The translations under genes were made by a program, and so were the position numbers. Under the pieces are notes generated by a model, which was given only the letters and a program-made list of their open reading frames with translations, was not told the origin of the DNA and did not search any database. From assembly GCA_965203445.1 (NCBI GenBank), contig OZ241883.1, positions 1,844,315-1,908,314 of the forward strand: a stretch of 64,000 nucleotides of DNA, given 5' to 3'. The number at the start of each line of letters is the position of its first letter. Position 1 is the first letter of the stretch. Shown in pieces: positions 16,073-35,454 of the stretch. Origin of the DNA: Candidatus Oxydemutator sp. Lineage in GTDB: Bacteria; Pseudomonadota; Gammaproteobacteria; Poriferisulfidales; Oxydemutatoraceae.

Positions 16073-17269
16073 ATGAAAAACAACCTGGAAGAATTGTTGC
16101 GCGGCACCGCCGAAGTGCTGCTGCCGGAGGAACTTGAAAAGCGCTTGGCCGCGGGCAGACCGCTGGTGGTCAAGGCCGGTTTCGATCCGACGGCGCCCGA
16201 CCTGCACCTGGGACATACGGTGTTGATCAACAAGTTGCGGCAGTTTCAGCGGCAGGGGCACGCGGTCAAGTTCGTGATCGGCGATTTTACCGGCATGATC
16301 GGCGACCCGAGCGGGCGCGACAAAATGCGCCCGCCGCTGACCAGGGAGCAGGTCGAGGAAAACGCCGCGACCTACGCCGGGCAGATCTACCGGATACTCG
16401 ACGAGGACGCGACCGACGTCTGCTTCAACTCGAAATGGCTGGCGGCGCTGTCGGCGGAAGACATCGTGGCGCTGGCCGCGCGCCACACCGTCGCGCGCAT
16501 GTTGGAACGCGACGATTTCCAGAAACGCTACAGCGGCGGACGGGCGATCGGCATCCACGAGTTTCTGTACCCGTTGCTACAGGGCTACGACTCGGTCGCT
16601 TTGCGCGCCGACGTCGAGTTGGGCGGCGTCGATCAGAAGTTCAACCTGCTGGTCGGCAGGGAATTGCAGAAAGACTACGGCCAGCCGCCGCAGGTTGTGA
16701 TGACGATGCCGTTGCTCGAGGGGCTGGACGGCGTGCGCAAGATGTCGAAGTCGCTGGACAACCACGTCGCGGTCGCGGCGTCGCCGGCGGAGACGTTCGG
16801 TCGGCTGATGTCGGTGTCGGACGAGTTGATGTGGCGCTATTTCGAGTTGCTGAGCCTGCGCCCGGGCGCGGACGTCGCGCTGCTCAGGCAGGCGGTCGCG
16901 GACGGACGCAACCCGCGCGACGTCAAGTTCGAGTTGGCCGGGGAGATCGTCGCGCGTTTTCACGACGCGCGCGCCGCGGCCGCCGCGCGCGACGATTTCA
17001 TCGCGCGTTTTCAGGAGCGCGCGACGCCGGACGACCTCGAGACGCGCGAGGTGACGATTGCCGAAGCGCGGGTGCCGTTGGCGGTGTTGCTGCGCATGTC
17101 GTCGCTGACCGCGTCGTCATCCGAGGCGCGGCGCATGATTCGGCAGGGCGCGGTGCGCGTGGACGGCGAGAAGATCGAGGACGCCGATCTTGAGGTCGAG
17201 GCCGGCAGCGAGCGCGTGTACCAGGTGGGGCGCCGCCGCTTTCAGCGTATCCGCGTAATCAGGTCCTGA
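16073..17269 (+). CDS. tyrS: tyrosine--tRNA ligase
   Basis: HIGH-type motif 'PDLHLGHTV', KMSKS motif 'KMSKSL', and a C-terminal S4-like domain. The start is placed at the internal ATG ([11 protein letters not shown]). Confidence 0.9.
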
Positions 17270-17874
17270 CCGCGCAGCTCGCGGTGGATCGTGAGATCGC
17301 GGTGCAGCCGCTCGATCCGGCGCCGCAATTCTTCCAGGTCGCCGTTGTTGTCCAGCACCACGTGCGCGGCTTGCAGCCTCTCGTCGCGTCCGGCCTGGGT
17401 CGCAAAGATTTTGCGCACCGCGGCCTCGTCGCAGCCGTCGCGCTCGATGATGCGCGTCGTCCGCGTGCGCTCGTCGCAATCCATGACGACGACGACGTCC
17501 ACCAGGTCGTCCATGCCGGCCTCCAACAGCAGCGGCGCACTGATGACGCAGTATGCGTGGTCGGCGTCGAGCGCCGCGGTGCGCCGCTCGATCTCGCGCC
17601 GCACCGCGGGATGCAAAATCGCGTTCAGCCGCCGTCGCGCGTCGGTGTCGTCGAAGATCAGGCGGCGCAATCGCGCGCGCTCCAGGCGCCCGTCCTGGTC
17701 GAGCATTTCGTCGCCGAACGCGGCGCTGATCTTCTCGAGGTGCGGGGCGCCCGGGCGCGTCAATTCGCGCGCGATTTCGTCGGCGTCGAGCAGCGGCGCG
17801 CCGTGTGCGCGAAACATCGCGCCGGCCTCGCTCTTGCCGCAGCCGACGCCGCCGCTCAGGCCGACGCGGATCAC
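17242..17874 (-). CDS. coaE: dephospho-CoA kinase
   Basis: From the GTG at 17872-17874 it reads '[18 protein letters not shown]' (P-loop). 210 aa. The GTG overlaps the pilD stop (GTGA). The 3' end overlaps tyrS by 28 nt in convergent orientation. Confidence 0.85.
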
Positions 17875-18716
17875 TGTAGGCTCCCGTTTGCGAGCAGCAG
17901 CCGCAGCGGGTTTTTGAAGGCGTCGGCGGACAGCAGGCACAGCCAGCCGGCGAGCGCCAGATGTGGGCCGAACGGAATCCGGGTTGCGCGCCGCCACTTG
18001 CCGGCGGCGATCATCGAAAGGCTTGCCGCGAGACCGCTGAGCGAAGCCAGCAGCACGATGCCGGGCAGCACCTGCCAGCCGAACCAGGCGCCGAGCGCGG
18101 CCAACAACTTGACGTCGCCTCCGCCCAGTCCCTGCCGTTTTCTGAGTGCCGCGTACGAGCGCTCGAGAACGAAGAAGGAGAGGTAGCCGGCGATCGCACC
18201 CATGATCGCCGACTGCGCGTCGGCAAACGTCGCCAGGCCGTTGACGGCGAGACCGAACCACAGCAGCGGCAGCGTGATTGCGTCGGGTAGCAGGCCGTCG
18301 CGCAGGTCTATCGCCGCCAGCGTCGTCAGACACGCGGCGAGTACGACGCCGGCTGAAAACTGCGGCCACGCGTCGTGGGCGAGCGCGACGCCGACGCAAG
18401 CCAGCGCCGTCGTCAGTTCGACTATCGGGTAACGCGGGCTGATCGGCGTCCGGCAGTGTGCGCACCGACCCTTCAAAAGCAGATAGCCCAGCAACGGCAC
18501 GTTGTGGCGCCATGCGATCGGTTGCCGGCAGGCGGGGCAGTGCGACGCCGGCGTCGCCAGCGACAGATGGTCGTAGCCGTCGTCGCCCGGTTCGTCGTCC
18601 GGCTCGCGCTGCGACGGCATCAGCGGCAGACGGTAGATGACGACGTTCAAGAAACTGCCGAGTATCAGCCCGCCGCCAAAAACGGCGGCCAGCCATGGCC
18701 AGGAGGAGTCGAGCAT
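17871..18716 (-). CDS. pilD: prepilin peptidase / N-methyltransferase (A24 family)
   Basis: 281 aa. The Cys motifs 'CPACRQPIAW...GRCAHCRTPI' are present, with multiple TM segments and 'GGGDVKLLAALGAWFG'. Confidence 0.9.
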   Translation of the reverse strand: MLDSSWPWLAAVFGGGLILGSFLNVVIYRLPLMPSQREPDDEPGDDGYDHLSLATPASHCPACRQPIAWRHNVPLLGYLLLKGRCAHCRTPISPRYPIVELTTALACVGVALAHDAWPQFSAGVVLAACLTTLAAIDLRDGLLPDAITLPLLWFGLAVNGLATFADAQSAIMGAIAGYLSFFVLERSYAALRKRQGLGGGDVKLLAALGAWFGWQVLPGIVLLASLSGLAASLSMIAAGKWRRATRIPFGPHLALAGWLCLLSADAFKNPLRLLLANGSLQ

Positions 18717-18997
18717 ACCGGATTATAGGGCAACCGCTGTTCGTGTTCACCGATGCACCGGCAAAAGGTCGTCGGTTTGTCAGGCGTTTCTTTCTCGAGC
18801 GCCCGCTGCGCCCGGAACGTCGCAGTAAATCAGATGAGTGTTATCCCTCGTGGTATGCCTCCAAAATACAGGTTTCAGGGAAACCCCGTTCCGGCGGCGC
18901 ATCAGTGAACCTTTACGGGAATGACGGACTCAAGGGGGCGGCGGGGCAGGTGGGGGGTCGCATTGATTAAAGTTCGGCTATGCCATATGCTAATCGG

Positions 18998-19669
18998 ATG
19001 AGATTGTCTTCCTTTCCGGCGGTTCGGGCGGTGTTCGCGGCCGTTTGTCTGGTCGGGCTTTGTCGGGGTTCGGCGGCACTGGCCGAAGCGGAGGACACCA
19101 GCGCCTCGAGCTACGACGACTGCACCCGAATCGAGCTGGATTTGGAGGCGGCAGCCGGGGCGCTCACCGACGAGGAGAAAATTGCGCTGATGGATAGGGA
19201 GTTTTATGAATCTTTGGCGCGCTTTGACCGTTGCCAGGCTTCGTTCTCGTCCGATGACGGCGGCGGTAGCGATGGCGGCGGTAGCGATGGCGGTGGTAGC
19301 GATGGCGGCGGTAGCGACGGTGGTCAGGGCGGCGGAGTACAATCGGTGCCGTCCGCGTCCGTTTCCGGAACCGACCCGGAAAAAGCCTCGGAAGAGGAAC
19401 CGAAAGAGGGCCGCGAACCGGGGACGCCCGCAGTGCAGCCGGCGACCGCGGAGCACTCGTCCACGCCGCGGGACAACGGCAAGACACCCGACGACATTCC
19501 TCCCGCCAACAACGACGACATAATCGCGCGGGGGCTGCGCGAGGTCGCGGAAAATGAAAAGAATCCCGAGGAAAGAGAGAAGCTATGGAACGAGTACCGC
19601 AAATACAAAAACCTGCCCGTCAAGGAGGCGCCCTCGGAAGAGCGGCCCGCACCAAAGCAGTCCCGATGA
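18998..19669 (+). CDS. secreted acidic repeat protein (hypothetical)
   Basis: Signal-peptide-like N-terminus MRLSSFPAVRAVFAAVCLVGLCRGSAALA. It has four GGGSD repeats and an acidic, Pro-rich C-terminus. The ORF-track start at 18980 is an alternative. First gene of an 8-gene co-directional cluster. Confidence 0.55.
   Translation: MRLSSFPAVRAVFAAVCLVGLCRGSAALAEAEDTSASSYDDCTRIELDLEAAAGALTDEEKIALMDREFYESLARFDRCQASFSSDDGGGSDGGGSDGGGSDGGGSDGGQGGGVQSVPSASVSGTDPEKASEEEPKEGREPGTPAVQPATAEHSSTPRDNGKTPDDIPPANNDDIIARGLREVAENEKNPEEREKLWNEYRKYKNLPVKEAPSEERPAPKQSR
19256..19315 (+). repeat. 15-nt coding tandem repeat x4 (gayggcggyggtagc = DGGGS)
   Basis: Four consecutive in-frame units read directly from the sequence, with a partial fifth unit following. 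Confidence 0.85.
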
Positions 19670-20895
19670 GATACCGGTTGTCGCGGGCGGCGTTGGTGCC
19701 GTTGACGTTGCTGCTTTCGGCGTGCGTCACCACCGGAAGTTTCCCTGGTTTCGGCGCGGGCCAAGGCGCCGCGGTCGGCCCCGGCAGCATCGAAGACGAT
19801 GCCGTCTCCGCCACCGCCGGCTTGCCGGCGAACACTCCTAGACTGGACGTCGTCATTCCGGTTTTCGACCCCGGTTTGCCGCAAGATCCCGACGATTACG
19901 CGGACAGCGGCGTGTGGCCGGAGCTGCGCCGTGCCGAGGCCAACCGCTTCGCGTTGAAGATGAAGGAGGCGCTCGAGAAAACCGAGGCCTTCGGCGCGGT
20001 GCGTGTGACCCCCGACAAGACCGCGGTCGGAGACCTGTACATATTAGGCGCCATCGAGGAATCCAACGGCGAGGACGTTGAGATCCGTATCGAAGCGGTG
20101 GCCATGTCCGGCAGGCGCTGGCACGCCGAGACTTATGAGCATCGCGTCAAGGAGGCGTTCTACCAGGACCCGCGCAGCAAGGGCGAAGACCCGTACGCGC
20201 CGGTGTTCGCCGAGGCCGCCGCCGACGTCGTGTCGAAGTTGCGCAAGAAGTCCGGCGACGAGCTGGCGCGGTTGCAGGCCGTAACCGAGATGCGTTTTGC
20301 CGCGTCTCTGTCGCCGGGCGCGTTCGGCGAGCATCTCAAGCAAAGAGGCGACACGTTCACGCTGGCCAGCCTGCCGGCGGAGGCGGATCCGATGCTTGCC
20401 AGGACGCGCGCCTTGCGCGTGCGCGACCAGTTGTTCGTCGACCGTTTGCAGAAACATTACGAGGACTTCGACACGCGCATGGACGAGAGCTATTCGGTTT
20501 GGCAGAAGGAAAGTTTTCAGGAGGTGAAGGCGGCGCGCGCGGCTTCCAGAAAGGCGTGGTTGGAGGGGCTGGCAGGCGCGGTGATCGTCGGTCTTAGCGT
20601 GGCGGCCGCGGTCAGCAGCGACAACCCCAATACCGGGGACGTGGCCCAAGTCGGCGCCGTCGCCGGTGGGCTCCTGATAGCAAAGAGTTTCCAGACGCGG
20701 GAGGAGATGAAGATCCACCGCGAGGCCCTGGCCGAGCTGGGCGAGTCCATCCATACCGAGCTTGCGCCGGCGGTGTTGGAGTTCGAGAACAAGACGGTTA
20801 CGCTTACCGGCAACGTCGAGGAACAGTTCGCCCAATGGCGGACTTATCTGAGGCGCATATACGAGCAGGAGGCGACGCCGGAAGTTCGTATGTAA
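19666..20895 (+). CDS. lipoprotein (hypothetical, 409 aa)
   Basis: MRYRLSRAALVPLTLLLSAC has a lipobox (LLSAC). The ATG overlaps the upstream stop (ATGA at 19666-19669). There are C-terminal Gly/Ala-rich hydrophobic segments (GLAGAVIVGLSVAAAVSS, VGAVAGGLLIA). Confidence 0.6.
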   Translation: MRYRLSRAALVPLTLLLSACVTTGSFPGFGAGQGAAVGPGSIEDDAVSATAGLPANTPRLDVVIPVFDPGLPQDPDDYADSGVWPELRRAEANRFALKMKEALEKTEAFGAVRVTPDKTAVGDLYILGAIEESNGEDVEIRIEAVAMSGRRWHAETYEHRVKEAFYQDPRSKGEDPYAPVFAEAAADVVSKLRKKSGDELARLQAVTEMRFAASLSPGAFGEHLKQRGDTFTLASLPAEADPMLARTRALRVRDQLFVDRLQKHYEDFDTRMDESYSVWQKESFQEVKAARAASRKAWLEGLAGAVIVGLSVAAAVSSDNPNTGDVAQVGAVAGGLLIAKSFQTREEMKIHREALAELGESIHTELAPAVLEFENKTVTLTGNVEEQFAQWRTYLRRIYEQEATPEVRM

Positions 20896-20903
20896 GGCCG
20901 GCG

Positions 20904-22427
20904 ATGGGAAGCCCCGTTGCAGAAAAAGTCGCGGCCGCGGCGGCCGCGAGCGCCACTAGAAAAAAGATCGTCGGGTTCCTGGCGGCCGTTGTTTTTGTCG
21001 TCGTCGCGGTCGTCGCCGCGGCCTACTTTATCTGGTCGCCGCCCGAGACCCGCGTTGCGACGCCCGCGCACGTCGTCGGCGGCGCGGACACGGGCGCCGG
21101 CGAGGGTGCGGGCGCCGGCGGGGGTGTGGGCGCCGGCGGGGGTGCGGGCGCCGACGGGGGTGCGAGCGCCGGCGGAGTCGGCGCCGACGAAGATGCCGAC
21201 GCGCTGAGGCGGGAGTTCAAAAGGCTGCTCAAATCGTTTCAGTCGGAGCTGGAGCCGGCCTTGCGGCGGGTATCCGTCGCCGCGTGGGACGCCGCCGCCC
21301 ACGACGATATATTTTCGCGCAAAGAAAAAGCGTTGCGCGCCTTTGGCGCGGGCAATTATTCGTCCGCCGTCCACCTGCTGCAAGGCGCCTCGGAGGTCGC
21401 CGCCGAGATCCTGCGCTTGGCCGAGCGGAGTTTTCGTTCGAGCATCGAGGCCGCGGCACGCGCCCTGCATGCGAACGACGTCGCCGTCGCGCGCGCGAGC
21501 ATAGCGCGGGCGTTGTTGATAAAGCCGGACGCGGCGGAGGCTTTGGCCCTGCGGGCGCGCATAGCGGTTCTGCCCGAAGTATTGCGGCTGCTGGAAGCGG
21601 CCGATGCGGCGCGTATCGAGAACGATGACGCGCTGCATCGGGCGCGGCTTCAGGAAATCGTGCGCCTGGACGCGGCGCGCGAGGACCTCAAGGAGCGGCT
21701 GCGCGTATTGTCCGAGAGGATGATCGAGCGCGAGTTCACGGGCTACGTCGCCGCCGGCGTGGACGCCGTCGCCAAACGCGACCTGGCGGCCGCGACGCGG
21801 TCTTTGCGGCGCGCGCAGGAGATCCATCCGGCGCGCGAGGAAGTCGCGTTGTTGGAGCGCGACGTGCGGCGACTTGCGCGCCGGGTCGCGCTCCAAGAGC
21901 ATCTGCGCGCGGCCGCCGCGGCCGTGGCCGACGACGACTGGGCGCGGGCGCATCGGCGTTTCCGCGAAGCGGTCGCGGTCGACGCCACCGCGGACGCGGT
22001 CGACGGCGAGAAACTTGCCGCGCGCGTCATCGCCGCGCACGAGGAGATCGCCTCCTATCTGGCGCGCCCGCGCCGGCTGTCCTCGCCAAACGTCGCGGCC
22101 GTGGCCGAGACCGCGCTGCGCGCGACCCGCGATCTGCATCGGGCAAGCCCGTCGCTGGCGCGCCAAGCCGGTATGCTTGAACGGTTGGTCGCCGATTACG
22201 CCACGCCGGTGCCGGTGCTCGTGCGCTCCGACAACCGCACCGAAATCCTCGTGCGCGGCGTCGGCAGAATCGGCAAGATCGGCGAGAAAGTCGTCGACCT
22301 GAGGCCGGGCGCCTACACTTTCGAGGGCAAGCGCCAGGGCTACAGGTCGAAGCTGATCCGCATCGAGGTGGCGCCTCGCCAGCGGCCGCCGGAAGTGACG
22401 CTGATTTGCGATGAGCGCCTGCGATGA
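20904..22427 (+). CDS. membrane-anchored protein: TM, Gly/Ala-rich linker, Ala/Arg-rich helical repeats, C-terminal PEGA-like domain
   Basis: From the ATG at 20904 it reads MGSPVAEKV...IVGFLAAVVFVVVAVVAAAYFIW (TM). The C-terminus 'VLVRSDNRTEILVRGVGRIG...LRPGAYTFEGKRQGYRSKLIRIEV' is PEGA-like. Its stop overlaps the next start (ATGA). Confidence 0.6.
   Translation: MGSPVAEKVAAAAAASATRKKIVGFLAAVVFVVVAVVAAAYFIWSPPETRVATPAHVVGGADTGAGEGAGAGGGVGAGGGAGADGGASAGGVGADEDADALRREFKRLLKSFQSELEPALRRVSVAAWDAAAHDDIFSRKEKALRAFGAGNYSSAVHLLQGASEVAAEILRLAERSFRSSIEAAARALHANDVAVARASIARALLIKPDAAEALALRARIAVLPEVLRLLEAADAARIENDDALHRARLQEIVRLDAAREDLKERLRVLSERMIEREFTGYVAAGVDAVAKRDLAAATRSLRRAQEIHPAREEVALLERDVRRLARRVALQEHLRAAAAAVADDDWARAHRRFREAVAVDATADAVDGEKLAARVIAAHEEIASYLARPRRLSSPNVAAVAETALRATRDLHRASPSLARQAGMLERLVADYATPVPVLVRSDNRTEILVRGVGRIGKIGEKVVDLRPGAYTFEGKRQGYRSKLIRIEVAPRQRPPEVTLICDERLR
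21092..21181 (+). repeat. 18-nt coding tandem repeat x5 (gggcgccggcgggggtgy = GAGGGV/A)
   Basis: Units are at 21092, 21110, 21128, 21146 and 21164 (the last is degenerate), read directly from the sequence. Confidence 0.8.
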
Positions 22428-24448
22428 ACACATTTGACGCGCGCTTGCGCTCGGCGCGCGCGCGCCAGCGTCGCGTGTTTGCGTTCGTCGTTCTCGGCGC
22501 GGTCGCGGCCGTGGTTCTGGTGGTGGCGTTCTGGGCTTCGACCCAGGGCGTATCGCTGATCGTAACACCGCGCGCGGCCGCCGATACACTCGAGTTGCGA
22601 ACCCTGCAGGGGTTCGGGTTCACCGCCGCGACCAGCGTCTACGCCTTCGGCGACGTGGTTGTCGAGGCGCGGGCACCGGGCTTTGTCACCGAGCGGATCG
22701 CGGTCGCATCGGGCAAGCAGAGCACGTTTCTTGAGGTCGCGATGCGCGAGGCGCCGGCATCGTTGCAGGTAACGACCGTGCCTGAGGCCGACGACACCGG
22801 TTGGTTTTTGAACGGCGCGCCGGTCGCGACGTCGCGCAGCCTGTCGTTGGAGACCGCGGCCGGCACGCATACCATAGTCATTAACCATCTTTATTATCAG
22901 AAAGCCGCGCTTGAGGTTTTCGTCGGTCGCGGCCAACGCTTTCGCCGGGAAGTGCGGTTGGCGCCGTTGCGCGGCGAGATCCGAATCCGCACGACGCCGC
23001 CGGGTGCAATGGTCTCGATGGACGGTGCGATCCGCGGCGCCGCTCCCGGCGTCTATCCGACGGCCGGCGGGCGCCGCACCGTTCGCGTCACCCATCCGGG
23101 TTATGAGGAGGTGCGCGACACCATAAATATCACCAACGCGGCCGCCGTCGTCGTAAGAAACTACCGGTTGCGGCCGCAGGGCGCGTTCGTGCGTTTTCGG
23201 TTGCACCCGCCGGGCGGGCGGCTGACGTTGGACGGCAAGCGCGTGGACGCCGCCGGGCGCGTGCGGGTGGACTCGATGCGCGAACACGTGGCGTCTTATT
23301 TCAAGCCGGGCTGGCTGGCGCAAACCGAGACCTTCACGCTGCCGCCGTCGGGCGAGCGCGAAGTGCATCTTTCGCTGCGCGAGGAAATCGGCGTCGTCGA
23401 GGTCGTGTCGAGACCGCCGGCCACGGTGTCGGTCAACGGCGAGAGCGCCGGCGTCACGCCGCTGACCCTGCGCTTGCGCGCCGTCATGCACGAGATCACC
23501 GTCGCCAGAGAGGGCTACCGCAGTGTTACGCGCAAGTTGACCCCCGCCTCCGGCGCCGCCAGGAAGGTGGACGTGACGCTCGTCGAGGAGGCGTCGGCGA
23601 GATTGGCGGAAAGTCCCGCCGTGTACAAGAACAGCATCGGCATGACGCTGCGTTTATTCCGGCGCCCGGGAGTCTTCGAGATGGGGGCGCCGCGTCATGA
23701 ACGAGGCCAGCGCGCCAACGAGTTCCGAAGAAAGGTGCGGCTTGAAAAGGCGTTTTACGCGGCGACGCACGAGACGACCGCGGCGCAATACGCACGATAC
23801 AAGGGCGGCGGCGGCGCGCCGTCGGGGTCGCCGGGCGTGCCCGCGACCGGCGTCACGTGGCTTCAGGCGGCGGCTTTTTGCAACTGGTTGAGCGCCCGGG
23901 AGGGACTGCGGCCTTTTTATCGGTTGCAGCACGGCCGTTATCTCGGCGCCGACGTGCGCGCCGACGGCTACCGTCTGCTCACCGAGGCCGAGTGGGAATG
24001 GCTCGCGCGCAAGGCCGGGCGCGCACGCCAGACCCGCTTTACCTGGGGCGACGCCGACGCGGTGCCGGCGGCGGCGGGCAATCTGGCGGATCGCTCGGCC
24101 AAGGGGAAGCTCCAGTCCTACATTCCAAACTATAGCGACGGCTACGACGGCCTCGCGCCGGTGGCGAGCTTCGCCGCCGATCGGTCGGGACTGTACGACC
24201 TGTCGGGGAACGTCAGCGAGTGGGTACACGACGTATATTCGTTGGCACCGCCCGCGCCCGGCGTCGAAGTGGATCCGGTCGGCCGCGCCGTCGGCCAGGC
24301 CCACGTGTTCAAGGGCTCCAACTGGCGTTCCGCCACGATTACCGAGTTGCGGGCGTCTTTTCGGGAGACCGCCGCCGCCGGACGCGACGATTTGGGTTTT
24401 CGTGTGGCAAGATATTTGTACGGAGGAGAAAACACCGATGATCAATAA
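22424..24448 (+). CDS. membrane-anchored multi-PEGA protein with a C-terminal FGE-sulfatase (SUMF1/EgtB/PvdO-type) domain
   Basis: 674 aa with an N-terminal TM (VFAFVVLGAVAAVVLVVAFWA). PEGA-type repeats include 'IRIRTTPPGAMVSMDG...VTHPGYEEV' and 'VEVVSRPPATVSVNGESAGVTPL...VAREGYRSV'. The C-terminus has 'VTWLQAAAFCNWLS...YRLLTEAEWEWLARK...YDLSGNVSEWVHD...GFRVARYL'. Confidence 0.8.
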   Translation: MNTFDARLRSARARQRRVFAFVVLGAVAAVVLVVAFWASTQGVSLIVTPRAAADTLELRTLQGFGFTAATSVYAFGDVVVEARAPGFVTERIAVASGKQSTFLEVAMREAPASLQVTTVPEADDTGWFLNGAPVATSRSLSLETAAGTHTIVINHLYYQKAALEVFVGRGQRFRREVRLAPLRGEIRIRTTPPGAMVSMDGAIRGAAPGVYPTAGGRRTVRVTHPGYEEVRDTINITNAAAVVVRNYRLRPQGAFVRFRLHPPGGRLTLDGKRVDAAGRVRVDSMREHVASYFKPGWLAQTETFTLPPSGEREVHLSLREEIGVVEVVSRPPATVSVNGESAGVTPLTLRLRAVMHEITVAREGYRSVTRKLTPASGAARKVDVTLVEEASARLAESPAVYKNSIGMTLRLFRRPGVFEMGAPRHERGQRANEFRRKVRLEKAFYAATHETTAAQYARYKGGGGAPSGSPGVPATGVTWLQAAAFCNWLSAREGLRPFYRLQHGRYLGADVRADGYRLLTEAEWEWLARKAGRARQTRFTWGDADAVPAAAGNLADRSAKGKLQSYIPNYSDGYDGLAPVASFAADRSGLYDLSGNVSEWVHDVYSLAPPAPGVEVDPVGRAVGQAHVFKGSNWRSATITELRASFRETAAAGRDDLGFRVARYLYGGENTDDQ

Positions 24449-24578
24449 CGGGATTTTTTACGCGGCGTTGGCGCTCATCGTGATCGTCGCGCTGGCTTAT
24501 CTGGCGGGGGACATTGCCGCCCGCGGCGCGCCGACGGTGGGCTTGAACTCGCCGACCACGTTTCCGGTGGACATCTGA
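24438..24578 (+). CDS. 46-aa single-TM mini-protein (hypothetical)
   Basis: Below the ORF-track size cut-off. Reads MINNGIFYAALALIVIVALAYLAGDIAARGAPTVGLNSPTTFPVDI. GGAGGAG lies 8 nt upstream. The start overlaps the 3' end of the previous gene, and the stop is 1 nt before the next start. Confidence 0.35.
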   Translation: MINNGIFYAALALIVIVALAYLAGDIAARGAPTVGLNSPTTFPVDI

Positions 24579-24579
24579 C

Positions 24580-25347
24580 GTGCGCCTGGATCACCGCGGC
24601 ATCTGGGTCAACGTGCTGATCCTGATCGCCGTGTTCGTCGTCGTGCATCTTGTGTACCTCGGGCTGATTCGCCCGCAGGCCGAGTTGGCGCTGGAAGCCG
24701 CGCGCCAGGCCGGACAGTCGGCGCCCCGGGATCTGTTCGTGATTTTGAAGGACCTGGAGCAGGAGATCTGCATCGTGCTGATGATTTACGGTCTCTATCT
24801 GATGTCGGTCAAGTACGCGAGCCTGGTGTCGCGGCGTTATCTGTTCACGGTGGATCTGCTGCAAGACGCCGGCGCCGACGAAGGTAGCCTGGGCAACGTG
24901 CTCGAGGAACTGGAGAAGCTGCCGCGACACGTCGGCGAGACGCCGCTGGTCGAGACCCTGAAGGCCAGCTTGCGGCGCTACCTGATAACCCGCGACGTGC
25001 AGAATACCTCGGACGCGATCAGCGCCAGCGTCGAGGCGCAGGGGGTGCGTCTCGAGGCCGAAAATTCGACCATCCGCTACCTGATCTGGGCGATCCCCTC
25101 GATTGGTTTCATCGGCACCGTGCGCGGCATCGGACAGGCGTTGTCGCAGGCCGAGAAGGCCCTGGCCGGGGACATTGCGACGATGACCGACAGCCTGGGC
25201 GTGGCCTTCAATTCGACCCTCGTGGCGCTGCTGATCAGCATTTTCCTGATGTTCTTCCTGCACCAGTTGCAACGCGCCCAGGACGGCTTGCTGGTCGAGA
25301 CCCAGGCCTACTGCGAGAAGTTTCTGCTCAATCGCATCAGCAGCTAG
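24580..25347 (+). CDS. MotA/TolQ/ExbB-family proton-channel protein
   Basis: 255 aa with a GTG start. The C-terminal channel signature is 'IRYLIWAIPSIGFIGTVRGIGQAL ... MTDSLGVAFNSTLVALLISIFLMFFLHQL'. Confidence 0.8.
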   Translation: MRLDHRGIWVNVLILIAVFVVVHLVYLGLIRPQAELALEAARQAGQSAPRDLFVILKDLEQEICIVLMIYGLYLMSVKYASLVSRRYLFTVDLLQDAGADEGSLGNVLEELEKLPRHVGETPLVETLKASLRRYLITRDVQNTSDAISASVEAQGVRLEAENSTIRYLIWAIPSIGFIGTVRGIGQALSQAEKALAGDIATMTDSLGVAFNSTLVALLISIFLMFFLHQLQRAQDGLLVETQAYCEKFLLNRISS

Positions 25348-25355
25348 GTGCGGTC

Positions 25356-26417
25356 GTGCGCAGACGCCGAAAAACCGAGGGCTTCAACCTCGCCTTTTTG
25401 GACATCATGTCCTGCGGCCTGGGTGCGGTCATACTTATTTTTCTGATAGTCAAGCACAACGTGGACAAGGGTTCGGTCGAGGCCGACGTCACGTTGTCGG
25501 AACTGGCAGCGATGGAGCAACGGGAGCGGCAACTGCAAAAGGAGGTCGAGACCGCGAGGCGGGACAACGCCGAGGAGCGTAGGCGCGGCGCCGAACTGGC
25601 GAAAAAACTGCATGCGATACGCGCCGCGACGGCCGCGCTCGAGCGCCAGGCGGCGGCGCAGCAGCGCAGCAACGAGCACCTGCAAGACGCGGTCGACGAG
25701 GCCGCGGCGCGGCGCGCCGCCGACGTGGTGGCGGATGAGGACGCGGGCGAAGAGGAGTATCTGATAGGGCTTGCGGTCGAGGGCGAGCGCGTCGCAATTT
25801 TGCTCGACCGCAGCGCCTCGATGACCGACGAGAAACTGGTGGACGTCATCGTGCGCAAGACGCGCGACGCCGCGCGCAAGCGCGCCGGCCCGAAGTGGCG
25901 CCGCGCCCAAAAGACCGTGCGTTGGTTGCTGAACCGCCTGCCGCGCCAAAGCCGCGTGTCGCTGATCGCGTTCAACGACAAGGCCGAGGTTTTCGGCGAC
26001 GCCACGTGGAACGACGCCCGTGACGCGACCGCCGTCGGCTCGCTGTTCGCCGACGTCGCCAAACTGACGCCCACCGGCGCGACCAACCTGCAAGCCGGGC
26101 TCGAGCGCTTGCGCAAGCTGCGCCCGCGCGCGACCGACGTTTATCTGATAACCGACGGCTTGCCGACCGAGGCCGTATCCAAACCCTCGCGCCTCGGCAA
26201 GTGCGGTTCCTTGTTCGGCAAGAGCAACAACGTCTCCGGCGCCTGCCGCGAGCTGCTGTTCCAGGAAACCCTGCGCGAGTCGGCGCCGAACGGCGGCGAG
26301 GAAGTCAACGTGATCTTGTTTCCATTGGAGGGGGATCCGGCGGCGGCCACCCATTTCTGGAAATGGGCCGCCGCCACTGGCGGTATGGTGATGACGCCCG
26401 CGGCGGGGTGGCCGTGA
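25356..26417 (+). CDS. ExbD/TolR-like TM-Asp anchor + coiled coil + von Willebrand factor A domain protein (paralog 1)
   Basis: 353 aa. The N-terminus is 'RRRRKTEGFNLAFLDIMSCGLGAVILIFLIVK'. An Arg/Glu/Ala-rich coiled coil follows. The MIDAS motif is 'VAILLDRSASM'; also '...SLIAFNDKA...TPTGATNL...VYLITDG'. Confidence 0.8.
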   Translation: MRRRRKTEGFNLAFLDIMSCGLGAVILIFLIVKHNVDKGSVEADVTLSELAAMEQRERQLQKEVETARRDNAEERRRGAELAKKLHAIRAATAALERQAAAQQRSNEHLQDAVDEAAARRAADVVADEDAGEEEYLIGLAVEGERVAILLDRSASMTDEKLVDVIVRKTRDAARKRAGPKWRRAQKTVRWLLNRLPRQSRVSLIAFNDKAEVFGDATWNDARDATAVGSLFADVAKLTPTGATNLQAGLERLRKLRPRATDVYLITDGLPTEAVSKPSRLGKCGSLFGKSNNVSGACRELLFQETLRESAPNGGEEVNVILFPLEGDPAAATHFWKWAAATGGMVMTPAAGWP

Positions 26418-26427
26418 GGGGGCGGTC

Positions 26428-27369
26428 GTGAAGCGGCGCGAAAGGAGCGGCGATATTTTCAGCATGTCGCTGTTGGACGTCGTCTCGTGCGGTTTCGGCG
26501 CGATGATCCTGTTGTTGCTGATAACCAAATCGGGTTTCACCGAAGCCGACGTCAACGTTGACCTGAGCGCGTTGCTTGACCGCACTTTTCAAACCGAGGA
26601 CAGTATTCGAAGGTTGTCCGAGGAACTCGACGGGTTGCGACGCGAACTTGCCGAGAACCGGCGCGCCAACCAGGACGCGCTCGCTAGGCAAGACGCGCGA
26701 CGACGCGAACTCGAACGCAAACGAGCCGCGGGCGCAAGCCTCAGGCGCGAAGGCCAGGGTCTGGAGAACGTGCGGCGCACTTTGCAGCGCGCCTCGATCT
26801 CGCGCGCCACCACCGACGAACGCGATACCGAGGTCGGCGGCATACCGGTGGACAGCGACCACGTCATTTTCATCATAGATACCTCGGGCAGCATGCAAAG
26901 CATCTGGGACAAGGTCACGCGGACGATAGAGAATATCCTGGACGTCCATCCCCAGGTGCGCGGCTTTCAGATACTCAACGACAACGGTTTCTATCTGGTC
27001 GGCGGCTACCGCGGAAAATGGATAGCGGACACGCCGAAAAGAAGGAAAAGCATACTGAACGCGGTGCGTTCCTGGGGCGCGCTCTCGAACAGCAGCCCGG
27101 TCGAGGGCCTCGAGGTCGCACTCAAGACGTATGCCGGCAAGCGCGACAAAATATCCATCTACATATTCGGCGACGACTTCGCCGGTTCGTCCTACGATAC
27201 GGTCATTCGCACCATAGAGAAGCTGAACACCGACAAGATCAGCGGTGCGCCGATTGTCCGGGTTCACGCGGTCGGCTTTTCCTCGGGCGGCGTCCCCGAG
27301 CGCTTCGGCATCCTGATGCGCGAGGTAACCGGAAAAAACAACGGCGTGTTCCTGGCGTTGCCGCCGTGA
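26428..27369 (+). CDS. ExbD/TolR-like TM-Asp anchor + coiled coil + von Willebrand factor A domain protein (paralog 2)
   Basis: 313 aa. The N-terminus is 'KRRERSGDIFSMSLLDVVSCGFGAMILLLLITK'. A coiled coil follows. The MIDAS motif is 'VIFIIDTSGSM'; also '...IYIFGDDF'. Confidence 0.8.
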   Translation: MKRRERSGDIFSMSLLDVVSCGFGAMILLLLITKSGFTEADVNVDLSALLDRTFQTEDSIRRLSEELDGLRRELAENRRANQDALARQDARRRELERKRAAGASLRREGQGLENVRRTLQRASISRATTDERDTEVGGIPVDSDHVIFIIDTSGSMQSIWDKVTRTIENILDVHPQVRGFQILNDNGFYLVGGYRGKWIADTPKRRKSILNAVRSWGALSNSSPVEGLEVALKTYAGKRDKISIYIFGDDFAGSSYDTVIRTIEKLNTDKISGAPIVRVHAVGFSSGGVPERFGILMREVTGKNNGVFLALPP

Positions 27370-27397: not shown

Positions 27398-28591
27398 TTA
27401 CAGCGCGAAGCCGAGATTGAATATCGGCAGGTACATCGTCGCCACGATCCAGCCGACGGTGCCGGCTATCAGCAGAATCAGCAGGGGTTCGGTCAGCTGG
27501 ATCACGCGCTCGGATGTAGCGGCGATGCGCTCGTCGTAGAACTCGGCGATCTGGCGCAGCGCCTCGTCGAGGCGTCCGCTGTTTTCGCCGATGCGTATCA
27601 CGCGCCGAAAGAAACGGTCGAAAAAGCCGGCGCTGCGTACCGCCTCGGAGAATCCCGCGCCTTCCTCCAGGCGTGCCGAGACGCGCTCCAGCGCCTTGCT
27701 GAAAACCGGATCGGAGGTCGCGTCGCCCAGCCACTCGACGGCGGTGGCGAGGGGCACGCCGGCGTCGTAGGCCGGCGCGACGACGGTTGCGAAGAGGCGG
27801 CACAGATACGCTTTTTTCAAGGTTCCCGCGAACGGCAGCCACAACGTCGCGTACGCCAGCGCGTAGCGAAACCAGCGCGCGTTGCGACGTAGCAACGCGA
27901 GACCCGCGCACAGCAGGGCGAGCAGCGCGCCGGCGTCGGCGCCGTGTTCGGAAAGAAGCGAGAACAAGCGCAGGGTCAGCTTCGTCGAGGCCGGCAGCTC
28001 GCCGCCGAAATCGGCGTAGAACGATTCGAATTGCGGCATCATTGTAAGCAGCAGCAGCGCCACGACGGCGCCCGACGCGACCAGCACCGTGACCGGGTAG
28101 GTCGCGGCCCGTTTCAGCTTCTTATGGATCTTTTCATGTTTTTCCCGTTGCGACGCCAGTTCGAGTGCCAGTTCCGCGAGGCGCCCGCTGTCCTCGCCGG
28201 CTTGCAGGATGCGGAAGACGTAGCGGTGGCGCGGGTGCAGGTACGGTGCGATACTCCGCGCAAGGCCGCCGCCGGCCTCGACGTCCTGCCAGATCAGCGT
28301 CAGCGTCCGTTGCAGGCGCGGTTGCGCCTGGCGGCGCAGCAGGTCGAAGACGTCGCCCACGGGCAGCGTCGCGCGCAACAACGTCGCAAGTTGCCGCAAC
28401 AGCGCCGTGACGTCGCGCCCGCCGAGGCGCCGCACGCGCCCGCCGGCTGAGATTTTTATCGGGATAACGTCTTGCGTTGCAAGGAATTGCCTGAGTTCGT
28501 CCTTGTCGCGCGCGGCGCGCACTCCGCTTATGATCTCGCCCGAGGGCACGAGACCGCGCCACCGGAAGCATTTTTTGGCGTCCTCGGCCAA
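27398..28591 (-). CDS. pilC: type IV pilus assembly platform protein PilC (GspF family)
   Basis: 397 aa with two GspF-type repeats ('AGEDSGRLAELAL', 'IGENSGRLDEAL') and three TM regions. The TTG start is 3 nt after the pilA stop. Confidence 0.9.
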   Translation of the reverse strand: MAEDAKKCFRWRGLVPSGEIISGVRAARDKDELRQFLATQDVIPIKISAGGRVRRLGGRDVTALLRQLATLLRATLPVGDVFDLLRRQAQPRLQRTLTLIWQDVEAGGGLARSIAPYLHPRHRYVFRILQAGEDSGRLAELALELASQREKHEKIHKKLKRAATYPVTVLVASGAVVALLLLTMMPQFESFYADFGGELPASTKLTLRLFSLLSEHGADAGALLALLCAGLALLRRNARWFRYALAYATLWLPFAGTLKKAYLCRLFATVVAPAYDAGVPLATAVEWLGDATSDPVFSKALERVSARLEEGAGFSEAVRSAGFFDRFFRRVIRIGENSGRLDEALRQIAEFYDERIAATSERVIQLTEPLLILLIAGTVGWIVATMYLPIFNLGFAL

Positions 28592-28594
28592 GGT

Positions 28595-29068
28595 TCAACG
28601 GCATTGCGCCGGCAGGTATTTCGAGTCGAGACGCTTGTCCTTGTCGTCGTCCGTGCCGCACTCCCATTTGAGAACGTCGGTGGCCGGGGCCGCTTTCAGC
28701 AGCAGCACCTTGCCGCCGGCCTCGCCGCCGATGGCCTGGTCGAGGGTGATCTTGAGGTTGCCGGCCGCGGCCGTTTTCTTTTGTTTGTTCGCCGCGATCC
28801 TTTCGTATTCGATGCCGGACACGTAGTCGCTGGTCACACTCGTGTCTATGCCGGCCTTGTCGGCGGTCTCCGGCAGCTGCCCCTCGCTGACGTAATATTC
28901 GCCGATCATGATTTTTATCGAGCTCGCCAGGTTCAGGGCCTCGGCGATTTTGGCGCGCACGGTATAATCCTGGTACGCCGGCAGCGCCAGCGACAGCAGG
29001 ATGCCGACGATGGCGATGGCGATCATCAGCTCGATCAACGTGAAGCCCTTGAGACCGTTGTTTTTCAT
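28595..29068 (-). CDS. pilA: type IV major pilin (PilA-type)
   Basis: MKNNGLKG/FTLIELMIAIAIVGILLSLALPAYQDY is the class III signal with the conserved Glu at +5. There is a C-terminal Cys pair (WECG...PAQC). Confidence 0.9.
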   Translation of the reverse strand: MKNNGLKGFTLIELMIAIAIVGILLSLALPAYQDYTVRAKIAEALNLASSIKIMIGEYYVSEGQLPETADKAGIDTSVTSDYVSGIEYERIAANKQKKTAAAGNLKITLDQAIGGEAGGKVLLLKAAPATDVLKWECGTDDDKDKRLDSKYLPAQCR

Positions 29069-33727: not shown

Positions 33728-33812
33728 GGAGGGGTACCCAAGCGGTCAACGGGGGCAGACTGTAAATCTGCTGGCTATGCCTTCGTAGGTTCGAATCCTA
33801 CCCCCTCCACCA
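33728..33812 (+). tRNA. tRNA-Tyr (GTA)
   Basis: 85 nt. The acceptor stem is GGAGGGG/CCCCTCC and the anticodon loop is ctGTAaa. It has a long variable arm, a GTTCGAATC T-loop and an encoded CCA. Confidence 0.9.
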
Positions 33813-33909
33813 TGAAAATGCAGGAGGGGGTAGCCGGGAATAACCGGGGTGGCCATGAGCGCGGAAATGGCAGTCGCAACCGGATTGCAGGAGGCCGGAA
33901 CGATTCCGT

Positions 33910-33983
<74 letters not shown>

Positions 33984-34010
33984 GCGAAGCGCAGGGACGC
34001 CCTGAGCCGC

Positions 34011-34085
34011 GCCCATATAGCTCAGTGGTAGAGCACTTTCTTGGTAAGGAAGAGGTCACCGGTTCAATCCCGGTTATGGGCTCCA
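34011..34085 (+). tRNA. tRNA-Thr (GGT)
   Basis: 75 nt. The acceptor stem is GCCCATA/TATGGGC and the anticodon loop is ctGGTaa. It has a GTTCAATCC T-loop and an encoded CCA. Confidence 0.9.
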
Positions 34086-34113
34086 ATTCACCAACCGTTC
34101 GCAGGAAAACACG

Positions 34114-35294
34114 ATGTCGAAAGAGAAATTTGAGAGGACGAAGCCGCACGTAAACGTAGGCACGATAGGCCACGTGGATCACGGCAAGACGACGCTGACG
34201 GCGGCGCTGACGAAGGTGTTGTCGGAGAGTCAGGGCGGGGAGTATCGTTCGTATGATCAGATAGACAACGCGCCGGAGGAGCGCGAGCGAGGGATCACGA
34301 TAGCGACGGCGCACGTGGAGTATGAGTCTGCGGGTCGTCATTACGCGCACGTGGACTGTCCGGGGCACGCGGACTACATCAAGAACATGATAACGGGCGC
34401 GGCGCAGATGGACGGGGCGATATTGGTGGTGAGCGCGTCGGACGGACCGATGCCGCAGACGCGGGAGCACATATTGCTGGCGCGTCAGGTGGGGGTGCCG
34501 CACGTGGTGGTGTATTTGAACAAGGCGGACATGGTGGACGACAAGGAGTTGATGGAGTTGGTGGAGATGGAGGTGCGGGAGTTGCTGACGAGTTACGAGT
34601 TTCCGGGGGAGGAGGTACCGATAGTGTCGGGTTCGGCGCTGAAGGCGTTGGAGGGAGACGAGGGTGAGCACGGATCGGGTTCGATCATGAAGTTGGTGGG
34701 GGCGATGGATGAGTATATTCCGGAGCCGGAGCGGGCGGTGGACGGTGATTTTCTGATGCCGGTGGAGGACGTATTTTCGATTTCGGGCCGGGGCACGGTG
34801 GTGACGGGTCGTATAGAGCGTGGAGTGGTGAAGGTGGGAGACGAGGTGGGTATAGTGGGCGTGCGCGAGACGACGTCGACGACGTGCACGGGAGTGGAGA
34901 TGTTCAGGAAGTTGTTGGACGAGGGACGCGCGGGGGACAACGTGGGGGTGTTGCTGCGCGGGACGAAGCGCGAGGAGGTGGAGCGGGGTCAGGTATTGTG
35001 CAAGCCGGGGTCGATCACGCCGCACGTGGAGTTTGAGTCGGAGGTGTACGTGTTGTCGAAGGAGGAGGGTGGTCGTCACACGCCGTTTTTCAAGGGTTAT
35101 CGTCCGCAGTTTTATTTTCGGACGACGGACGTGACGGGCGAGGTGGAGTTGGAGTCGGGAGTGGAGATGGTGATGCCGGGGGACAACGTGAAGTTCAAGG
35201 TGAGGTTGATAGCGCCGATAGCGATGGACGAGGGACTGCGATTTGCGATTCGCGAGGGCGGGCGCACGGTCGGCGCCGGCGTCGTCACCAAGGT
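34114..35294. repeat. 1181-bp duplicated block (tuf CDS), copy 1
   Basis: Matches 50208-51388 at an offset of 16094. The only difference I found is 35250 t versus 51344 c (synonymous). Identity starts exactly at the ATG. Confidence 0.85.
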
Positions 35295-35304
35295 GTTGAA
35301 GTAA
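34114..35304 (+). CDS. tuf: elongation factor Tu (copy 1)
   Basis: 396 aa with [15 protein letters not shown] and NKAD motifs. It sits at the tufB-type position after the tRNA cluster. Confidence 0.97.
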
Positions 35305-35378
35305 TGCCGCGCGGTGTCATCGGCGGTGTCGTGGCGGATGCCGTCGCACCGAAGACTTCGCCCAGGGGTTTGCACGAC

Positions 35379-35454
<76 letters not shown>

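Follow-up and report, generated by a model that had tools for sequence, protein, structure and literature searches.

A MotA/ExbB-family channel gene beside a pair of membrane-anchored vWA proteins in an eight-gene operon: a candidate ion-driven motor

The stretch analysed here, a window of 64,000 nucleotides (nt) from Candidatus Oxydemutator sp. (assembly GCA_965203445.1, contig OZ241883.1, positions 1,844,315 to 1,908,314), carries on its forward strand an operon of eight genes (g1 to g8, window positions 18980-27369), the last three of which encode a channel subunit of the MotA/ExbB family (g6) and two paralogous membrane-anchored proteins with von Willebrand factor A (vWA) domains (g7 and g8). 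Together they probably constitute a 5:2-type motor, in which a ring of g6 would surround a g7/g8 heterodimer, a transmembrane (TM) aspartate in each of the two partners would relay protons, and heads bearing a metal ion-dependent adhesion site (MIDAS) would hold a partner encoded in the same operon. A motor of this type, driven by the proton-motive force, had been put forward in the original prediction, which was made from this DNA sequence; the idea is plausible and is supported in part by the results below. The system is real, widespread and experimentally uncharacterised, and the present locus is not its first sighting, since its central idea appeared in print in 2025 (Mol Biol Evol 2025;42:msaf138; PMC12204202).

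Within positions 24402-27369, four genes follow one another closely on the plus strand, namely g5 (24438-24578; 46 amino acids (aa) from an ATG, the longest open reading frame (ORF) being 58 aa from a GTG at 24402), g6 (24580-25347; 255 aa), the first vWA protein g7 (25356-26417; 353 aa) and its paralogue g8 (26428-27369; 313 aa). All four had been delineated in the original prediction, and each of the motifs quoted there was found verbatim in the translations. The tight junctions that it described were measured as gaps of 1, 8 and 10 nt for g5/g6, g6/g7 and g7/g8, together with an 11-nt overlap of the g5 ORF with the end of g4 (24448), and the single-TM ORF of 46 aa that it placed directly 5' of the channel gene has its stop 1 nt before g6. 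What had been missed is that this module, real as it is, forms only the 3' part of the eight-gene operon. A scan for promoters and terminators yielded nothing informative.

The predicted assignment of g6 to the MotA/TolQ/ExbB group is upheld by the Pfam model MotA_ExbB (PF01618), which matches residues 124-238 with 52.3 bits against a cutoff of 22.9 and is likewise found in 25 of 25 members of the g6 family. Four TM helices are predicted from hydropathy and from where the Pfam match lies, a MotA-like layout that differs from ExbB and TolQ by an extra helix at the N-terminus, and a conserved periplasmic loop of 32 residues contains the motif KDxEQEIC. In a family alignment of 61 sequences, the segments G179-T180-V-R-G183 and N211-S212-T213 are invariant, and T180 (codon 25117-25119) and T213 (codon 25216-25218) fall on what we take to be the pore-lining threonine positions of TolQ and ExbB (GTVWGI and ATAIG; TolQ T145/T178, ExbB T148/T181). 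The cytoplasmic residues of g6 are few (about 80 plus 27), and it is unlikely that a rotor in the cytoplasm could be driven by a ring with such a small mass on that side, which is why its output should be sought in the periplasm. Apart from a marginal match of g6 to the MotA structure 6YSL (E 0.31), searches of the PDB sequences with g6, g7 and g2 returned nothing useful. Two cysteines of g6, Cys64 (24769-24771) and Cys245 (25312-25314), are also invariant.

The two genes that follow encode proteins of matching design. In g7 a basic N-terminus leads into one TM helix, a helical stalk that extends to about residue 118 and a vWA domain, for which the Pfam models VWA_2 (43.7 bits, cutoff 27) and VWA (24.2 bits, cutoff 23.8) both match. 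Its AlphaFold2 model has a continuous helix over residues 22-118 followed by a vWA fold, with a predicted local distance difference test score (pLDDT) above 90, and the top PDB matches of this model in Foldseek are all vWA proteins (CLCA1, the Streptococcus pilin PilB and BatA/BatB). The g7 family has a full and invariant MIDAS (D151-x-S153-x-S155 at 25806-25820, T243 and D267), two further conserved cysteines (Cys283 and Cys297) and a conserved C-terminal end (...PAxGWP). A comparison of the g7 and g8 family profiles with hhalign gave a probability of 99.5% and an E-value of 2.6e-22 over 268 columns, and because the aligned region begins at the N-terminus, takes in the TM helix and the stalk and reaches into the vWA domain, the two proteins are paralogues over helix, stalk and head. 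The stretch between TM helix and vWA domain that had been described as coiled coil is a helical stalk of about 90 residues in both proteins. The spacing between the TM aspartate and the MIDAS aspartate, 134-146 residues in g7 and 125-141 in g8, is tightly constrained and similar in the two.

The features that suggest a place in the channel lie in the N-terminal helices. The TM aspartate is invariant among the sequences from related loci, Asp16 of g7 (25401-25403) in 66 of 66 and Asp17 of g8 (26476-26478) in 80 of 80, and it is embedded in a near-invariant motif, FNLAFLD[IV]M[SA]CGLGA in g7 and LSFLD[VI]I[ST]CGFGA in g8, of which FLDxMxCGLGA and FLDxIxCGFGA respectively are at least 95% conserved across phyla. 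Each protein has a single hydrophobic segment of about 22 residues, preceded by a basic stretch (mean net charge +3.3 in g7 and +2.4 in g8), from which a topology with the N-terminus inside and the C-terminus in the periplasm is predicted. The helices are not signal peptides, since signal peptides would show the opposite of such conservation of a helix face across phyla. The helix motifs of both proteins also contain DxxxC, with an invariant cysteine one helical turn past the aspartate (D16/C20 at 25401-25415; D17/C21 at 26476-26490).

These proteins had been called ExbD/TolR-like, which stands for the layout, as g7 and g8 share with ExbD and TolR an N-in single TM helix with one conserved, essential-looking aspartate near its cytoplasmic end. 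The periplasmic alpha/beta domain of the ExbD type is absent from both, and a long helix and a vWA domain take its place. Further likenesses to the ExbB-ExbD and TolQ-TolR 5:2 motors found in Ton and Tol-Pal are the MotA_ExbB-family channel and the periplasm-directed output, whereas here the partner would be a heterodimer of paralogues with coiled-coil stalks and vWA heads, and the core operon encodes no transducer with an SHLS helix as in TonB or TolA. Neither across the 64 kb of the window nor within any of the related operons was a homologue of ExbD, TolR or MotB found, and Pfam, NCBIfam and PADLOC scans of the module proteins returned no match to these three families and no OmpA-like peptidoglycan-binding domain of the MotB/ZorB type. 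To our knowledge, no MotA/ExbB-family protein works without a pore partner, and with ExbD and TolR missing from the operons the vWA proteins are therefore the only candidate partners of g6.

The same architecture has been proposed in an in silico study, which reports no experiments and in which a family of TM-tethered vWA proteins, seeded on Idiomarina loihiensis, was found to co-occur tightly with tolQ homologues, with no tolR or exbD nearby and with the vWA genes in heterologous pairs (PMC12204202). The N-terminal segment is described there as a 'transpore helix' with a conserved Asp (TPH-vWA), and AlphaFold3 models place the Asp helices inside a TolQ-like pentamer, ringed by threonines; the proposal is built on synteny and these models. 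Compared by description, the window module is the same architecture: both have a TolQ/MotA-like gene with conserved threonines in its product, no tolR or exbD, a pair of vWA genes, an Asp helix and a distribution centred on Proteobacteria. The window operon adds genes for a protein with PEGA repeats and a domain like that of formylglycine-generating enzyme (FGE), a TPR protein, a lipoprotein, a secreted acidic protein and a small TM protein; these other five conserved genes are not mentioned in the paper, the text of which contains neither 'sulfatase' nor 'PEGA' (0 occurrences). The statement in the original prediction that no characterised system of this kind was known thus holds as far as experiments are concerned and fails for the architecture, which was proposed in 2025. 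New here are the eight-gene composition, the conservation statistics, the negative result on homology to ExbD/TolR and the list of cultured carriers.

The module is far from confined to this genome. In a scan of one genome per species, relatives were found in at least 591 species-level genomes. Synteny was read from 84 related loci (L001-L084), in which the genes were assigned by iterative searching with the window's proteins. Database searches gave more than 900 homologues for each query, g2 among them, and when a g7 profile was run against 1.84 billion representatives, the clusters (50% identity) that matched numbered 314 with E<=1e-30 and 841 with E<=1e-10; in more distant g7 relatives, Asp helix, MIDAS and C-terminal motif are all retained. 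The same upstream genes were first noted around three distant homologues, and the complete order g1-g8 is present in 61 of the 84 loci, the incomplete ones being mostly cut by contig ends, and a few showing minor differences such as a split g4 or one gene unassigned. g7 and g8 are always adjacent, and g5, the C-terminus of which is conserved (sLNSPxsFPVDI in 56 aligned sequences), is found in nearly all 84 loci (missing in about 5) and always directly 5' of the MotA-like gene; not only the TM aspartates but also the gene triplet of the original prediction are conserved in homologous loci. Carriers belong to seven major lineages, the Alpha-, Beta-, Gamma- and Zetaproteobacteria, Desulfobacterota, Nitrospirales and Binatia, and include Arenicellales, Methylophaga and Amphritea among the Gammaproteobacteria, Sneathiella, Magnetovibrio blakemorei MV-1 and Aestuariispira insulae among the Alphaproteobacteria, Nitrosomonadaceae, and Mariprofundus of the Zetaproteobacteria. 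There are no conserved flanking genes, since none of the flanking families recurs in over 8 of 82 loci, and copies of the operon were not found in any record of a plasmid or phage; the operon is therefore a self-contained chromosomal unit.

In the mechanism that we favour, g5-g8 would be the inner-membrane engine of an eight-gene envelope operon. g6 would form an ion-conducting ring enclosing one g7 and one g8 (5:1:1), the N-terminal helices of which would occupy the pore in the stead of ExbD, TolR or MotB, with the TM aspartates of both as the ion relay, an arrangement for which the published AlphaFold3 models of a system of like architecture speak independently. Proton flow would turn the ring relative to the heterodimer, and the two stalks of about 90 residues, equivalent to about 12 nm, would as a pair carry the vWA heads across the periplasm, where their MIDAS sites would grip an acidic residue of a partner. 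Likely partners of the heads would be the co-conserved periplasmic products of g1, g2, g3 and g4. For all products of the operon other than the tiny g5 and g6, which is embedded in the membrane, a periplasmic orientation is predicted.

Several results weigh against this mechanism and must be set beside it. Against the equivalog models of ExbB (exbB2), TolQ and ZorA, g6 scores only 13-21 bits, with cutoffs of 135-500, and because these scores are weak we regard it as a divergent member of the superfamily and not as an orthologue of a named motor. For the helices of g7 and g8, the Pfam model ExbD (PF02472) matches neither the full proteins nor the isolated N-terminal peptides at E<=10, and a crude TM profile made from three ExbD/TolR sequences did not raise them above the background of about 21,000 ORF segments. 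In addition, jackhmmer searches from E. coli TolR and ExbD never reached the vWA proteins, their sole find being an unrelated ORF pair flanking one locus. With all three tests negative, 'ExbD/TolR-like' was abandoned as a claim of homology, and the likeness of the helices appears to be functional and architectural only. A further point concerns the second head, for which VWA_2 gives 17.2 bits, below the cutoff, with sub-threshold matches in 7 of 31 members of the g8 family, so that the vWA identity of g8 derives from its paralogy with g7. Its family conserves D151-T-S153-G-S155 (26878-26892) and G248-D249, but the position of the MIDAS threonine aligns to a conserved glutamate, which leaves the placement of that residue uncertain. 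A vWA domain with an intact MIDAS, as predicted for both proteins, is hence upheld for g7 by Pfam match, fold and full MIDAS, while g8 shows the DxSxS motif and the last aspartate, with a glutamate aligned to the threonine and a Pfam score below the cutoff; the g8 head may have a different metal coordination or a pseudo-MIDAS. Moreover, the stalk lengths of g7 and g8 do not covary across genomes (r = -0.1), which would have been a sign of a paired stalk, and full-text literature searches brought up no experimental work on the system and no phenotype for any of its members. At the site of the MIDAS threonine of g7 (GATNL), g8 has a conserved SNSSPVEG (27085-27105, residues 220-226).

If g6 and the vWA pair do form a motor, the moving and the static parts could be exchanged. 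The vWA heads would then anchor the heterodimer to a static scaffold (g2-g4, the cell wall or the outer membrane) in the manner of MotB on peptidoglycan, and the ring would move and drive riders on its rim, for instance g5 or the anchoring helices of g3 and g4, much as ExbB and TolQ carry TonB and TolA. The single-pass proteins g3, g4 and g5 are always co-encoded, g5 is translationally coupled to g6 by the 1-nt gap, and a Microbulbifer-type variant of the operon has a TPR and TonB_C-like neighbour, all of which would suit this exchange. However, sequence conservation is lacking in the TM segments of g3, g4 and g5, where no SHLS or His motif occurs either, in contrast to TonB and TolA. Very little of g6 lies in the cytoplasm, and a cytoplasmic rotor partner is not evident. 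We consider such a reversal of roles unlikely.

A motor could also be absent altogether, with g6 acting as an ion channel or sensor only, the vWA proteins as independent scaffolds of the BatA/BatB type, and the adjacency of the genes reflecting a shared process. BatA and BatB, too, are paired TM-anchored periplasmic vWA proteins and are among the closest structural matches of g7, and the missing sequence homology of the g7 and g8 helices to ExbD/TolR would agree with simple anchors. On the other hand, a membrane-buried invariant aspartate on a near-invariant helix face is hard to explain for a simple anchor, and no other pore partner is encoded for g6. Bat operons, furthermore, contain a MoxR ATPase and DUF58, both absent here, and lack a MotA-like gene, while the Bat anchors have neither an invariant Asp helix nor a long stalk. 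This makes the absence of a motor quite improbable, and the ring around the g7/g8 heterodimer remains the reading that we prefer.

A role in anti-phage defence, where a MotAB-like envelope sensor would trigger an effector as in Zorya, a system that likewise uses a MotA/ExbB-family ring outside motility, has in its favour the weak ZorA match of the MotA domain of g6 in PADLOC/NCBIfam (17 bits, E 4e-4) and one genome with Shedu-domain, toxin-antitoxin and Tn7-like neighbours, but we give it hardly any credence, as there is no ZorA-type tail, no ZorB peptidoglycan-binding OmpA-like domain, no ZorC/D/E and no nuclease, helicase or other cytoplasmic effector, the products besides g5 and g6 are predicted to face the periplasm, the flanks differ from genome to genome and are mostly housekeeping, and no plasmid or phage copies were found. 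In the genome concerned, of the Rhodospirillales (L001/L002, 13467-20566), the operon adjoins genes for a PhdYeFM antitoxin, Shedu (SduA_C) and Tn7-like tniB/tniQ; such a neighbourhood of defence genes and mobile elements is not seen in the other loci.

The four genes upstream of the engine, all on the plus strand, supply the candidate partners. g1 (18980-19669; 229 aa), read from its ORF and the family alignment as a secreted acidic protein, has a signal-peptide-like N-terminus, a small domain with a Cys pair, a long disordered acidic linker rich in Gly and Ser, and a conserved C-terminal helix (NGKxPxDIPxADNDSVLEAQIR...LWNEYRKYKGLP); it has no match in Pfam. The disordered linker holds a conserved SVASSxMSGTE, and an exposed, conserved glutamate in this flexible SGTE segment would, speculatively, be the kind of ligand that is bound by a MIDAS. 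g2 is a lipoprotein of 409 aa from a probable ATG at 19666 (19666-20895; the longest ORF starts at 19585), with an invariant lipobox cysteine. Its N-terminal alpha/beta domain is conserved, and the protein further has a long hairpin of helices, the tip of which is hydrophobic and rich in Gly, and a small domain at the C-terminus. None of its homologues has a Pfam domain (0 of the more than 900), and they are annotated only as 'hypothetical' or 'lipoprotein'. A structure prediction based on database homologues (AlphaFold2, pLDDT 72, above 85 in the N-terminal domain) gave weak Foldseek matches to the N-terminal domain of TolB, LptE, HpaA and PqiC (E 5e-3 to 5e-2).

The other two are anchored in the membrane at their N-termini. 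g3 (20835-22427, with a true start perhaps at 20904) combines its TM anchor with a Gly-rich spacer and TPR-like helical repeats, for which 4 of 15 family members give matches to Pfam TPR models; the beta domain at its C-terminus is conserved (SDNxTxIxVRGVGxxG...LxPGxYxFEGxRxGY). In g4 (22424-24448), the TM anchor is combined with PEGA repeats (Pfam PEGA, 88.8 bits) and, at the C-terminus, with an FGE-sulfatase-like domain (Pfam FGE-sulfatase, 114.9 bits). At the positions that we take to be those of the catalytic pair of human FGE, no cysteine is conserved, so that this part of g4 probably serves for binding or as a scaffold and not as an enzyme, as in PorK/GldK. The NCBIfam model of GldK itself scores 72 bits, with a cutoff of 350, and g4 is thus not a GldK equivalog.

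The resemblance to the PorK/L/M/N proteins (GldK/L/M/N) of gliding and the type IX secretion system (T9SS) goes beyond this domain. Both sets combine an FGE-like, presumably non-enzymatic envelope protein with an inner-membrane motor of ring plus dimer, the dimer subunit is bitopic with a long periplasmic extension, and the genes come in the order FGE-like, ring subunit, axle subunit(s). They differ in that no match to GldL, GldM or GldN was obtained, that the ring is here a true MotA_ExbB homologue with Asp/Thr chemistry, that neither a T9SS translocon nor its substrates can be discerned, and that the carriers lie outside the Bacteroidota. The PorK-like g4, this gene order and the M48 and TonB_C neighbours of a variant operon would all point to a process at the outer membrane or in the envelope, and envelope maintenance, or movement or export at the outer membrane, are the obvious candidates for the physiological output. 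On a wider proposal, to which we give somewhat less than an even chance, the eight genes would represent a new class of proton-driven trans-envelope machine, apart from Mot, Ton, Tol, Agl/Glt, T9SS and Zorya, in which an axle made of a vWA-headed heterodimer works a periplasmic assembly of g1-g4 in a new outer-membrane function.

Few 5:2 ion-driven motors are understood, namely the flagellar stators, Ton, Tol, the gliding/T9SS motor and Zorya, and each of them opened a field. If the mechanism is correct, the module would be the first such motor whose pore dimer is not a relative of ExbD, TolR or MotB, and it would link ion flow directly to a MIDAS-mediated grip through a pair of vWA adhesion domains. 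The fixed composition of eight genes supplies candidate partners for the motor, and cultured carriers permit direct testing, among them Magnetovibrio blakemorei MV-1, Aestuariispira insulae, Sneathiella spp. and, with an expanded variant of the operon, many Microbulbifer spp.

This variant is present in Microbulbifer, other Cellvibrionales and a TARA contig, and more distant g7 relatives are encoded in it. After the MotA-like gene and before the first vWA gene, it codes for an additional protein of about 434 aa (L086 8554-9858; L087 8707-10011; L085 20-1336), for which no match was obtained in Pfam or among the PDB sequences. Downstream it continues with two small ORFs and an M48 peptidase, and upstream lies a protein with TPR and a TonB_C-like domain (23 bits, just below the cutoff).

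Within the window, the operon looks like an insertion into a pilC-pilD-coaE string, as it is flanked on one side by pilC (27398-28591) and pilA (28595-29068) and on the other by pilD (17871-18716) and coaE (17242 to about 17860), all of them on the minus strand. A linkage to type IV pili as a general feature was rejected, since pil neighbours occur in 0 of the 84 related loci and are specific to this genome. On the same minus strand, an ORF of 502 aa (17242-18750) matches CoaE in its residues 296-473 only and overlaps with its upstream portion, in a different frame, the ORF of pilD (Peptidase_A24); it is probably over-extended. Further along, Rfam places a cluster of four tRNAs at 33728-35451, and strong peaks of GC skew lie at 34-36 kb and 50-52 kb of the window.

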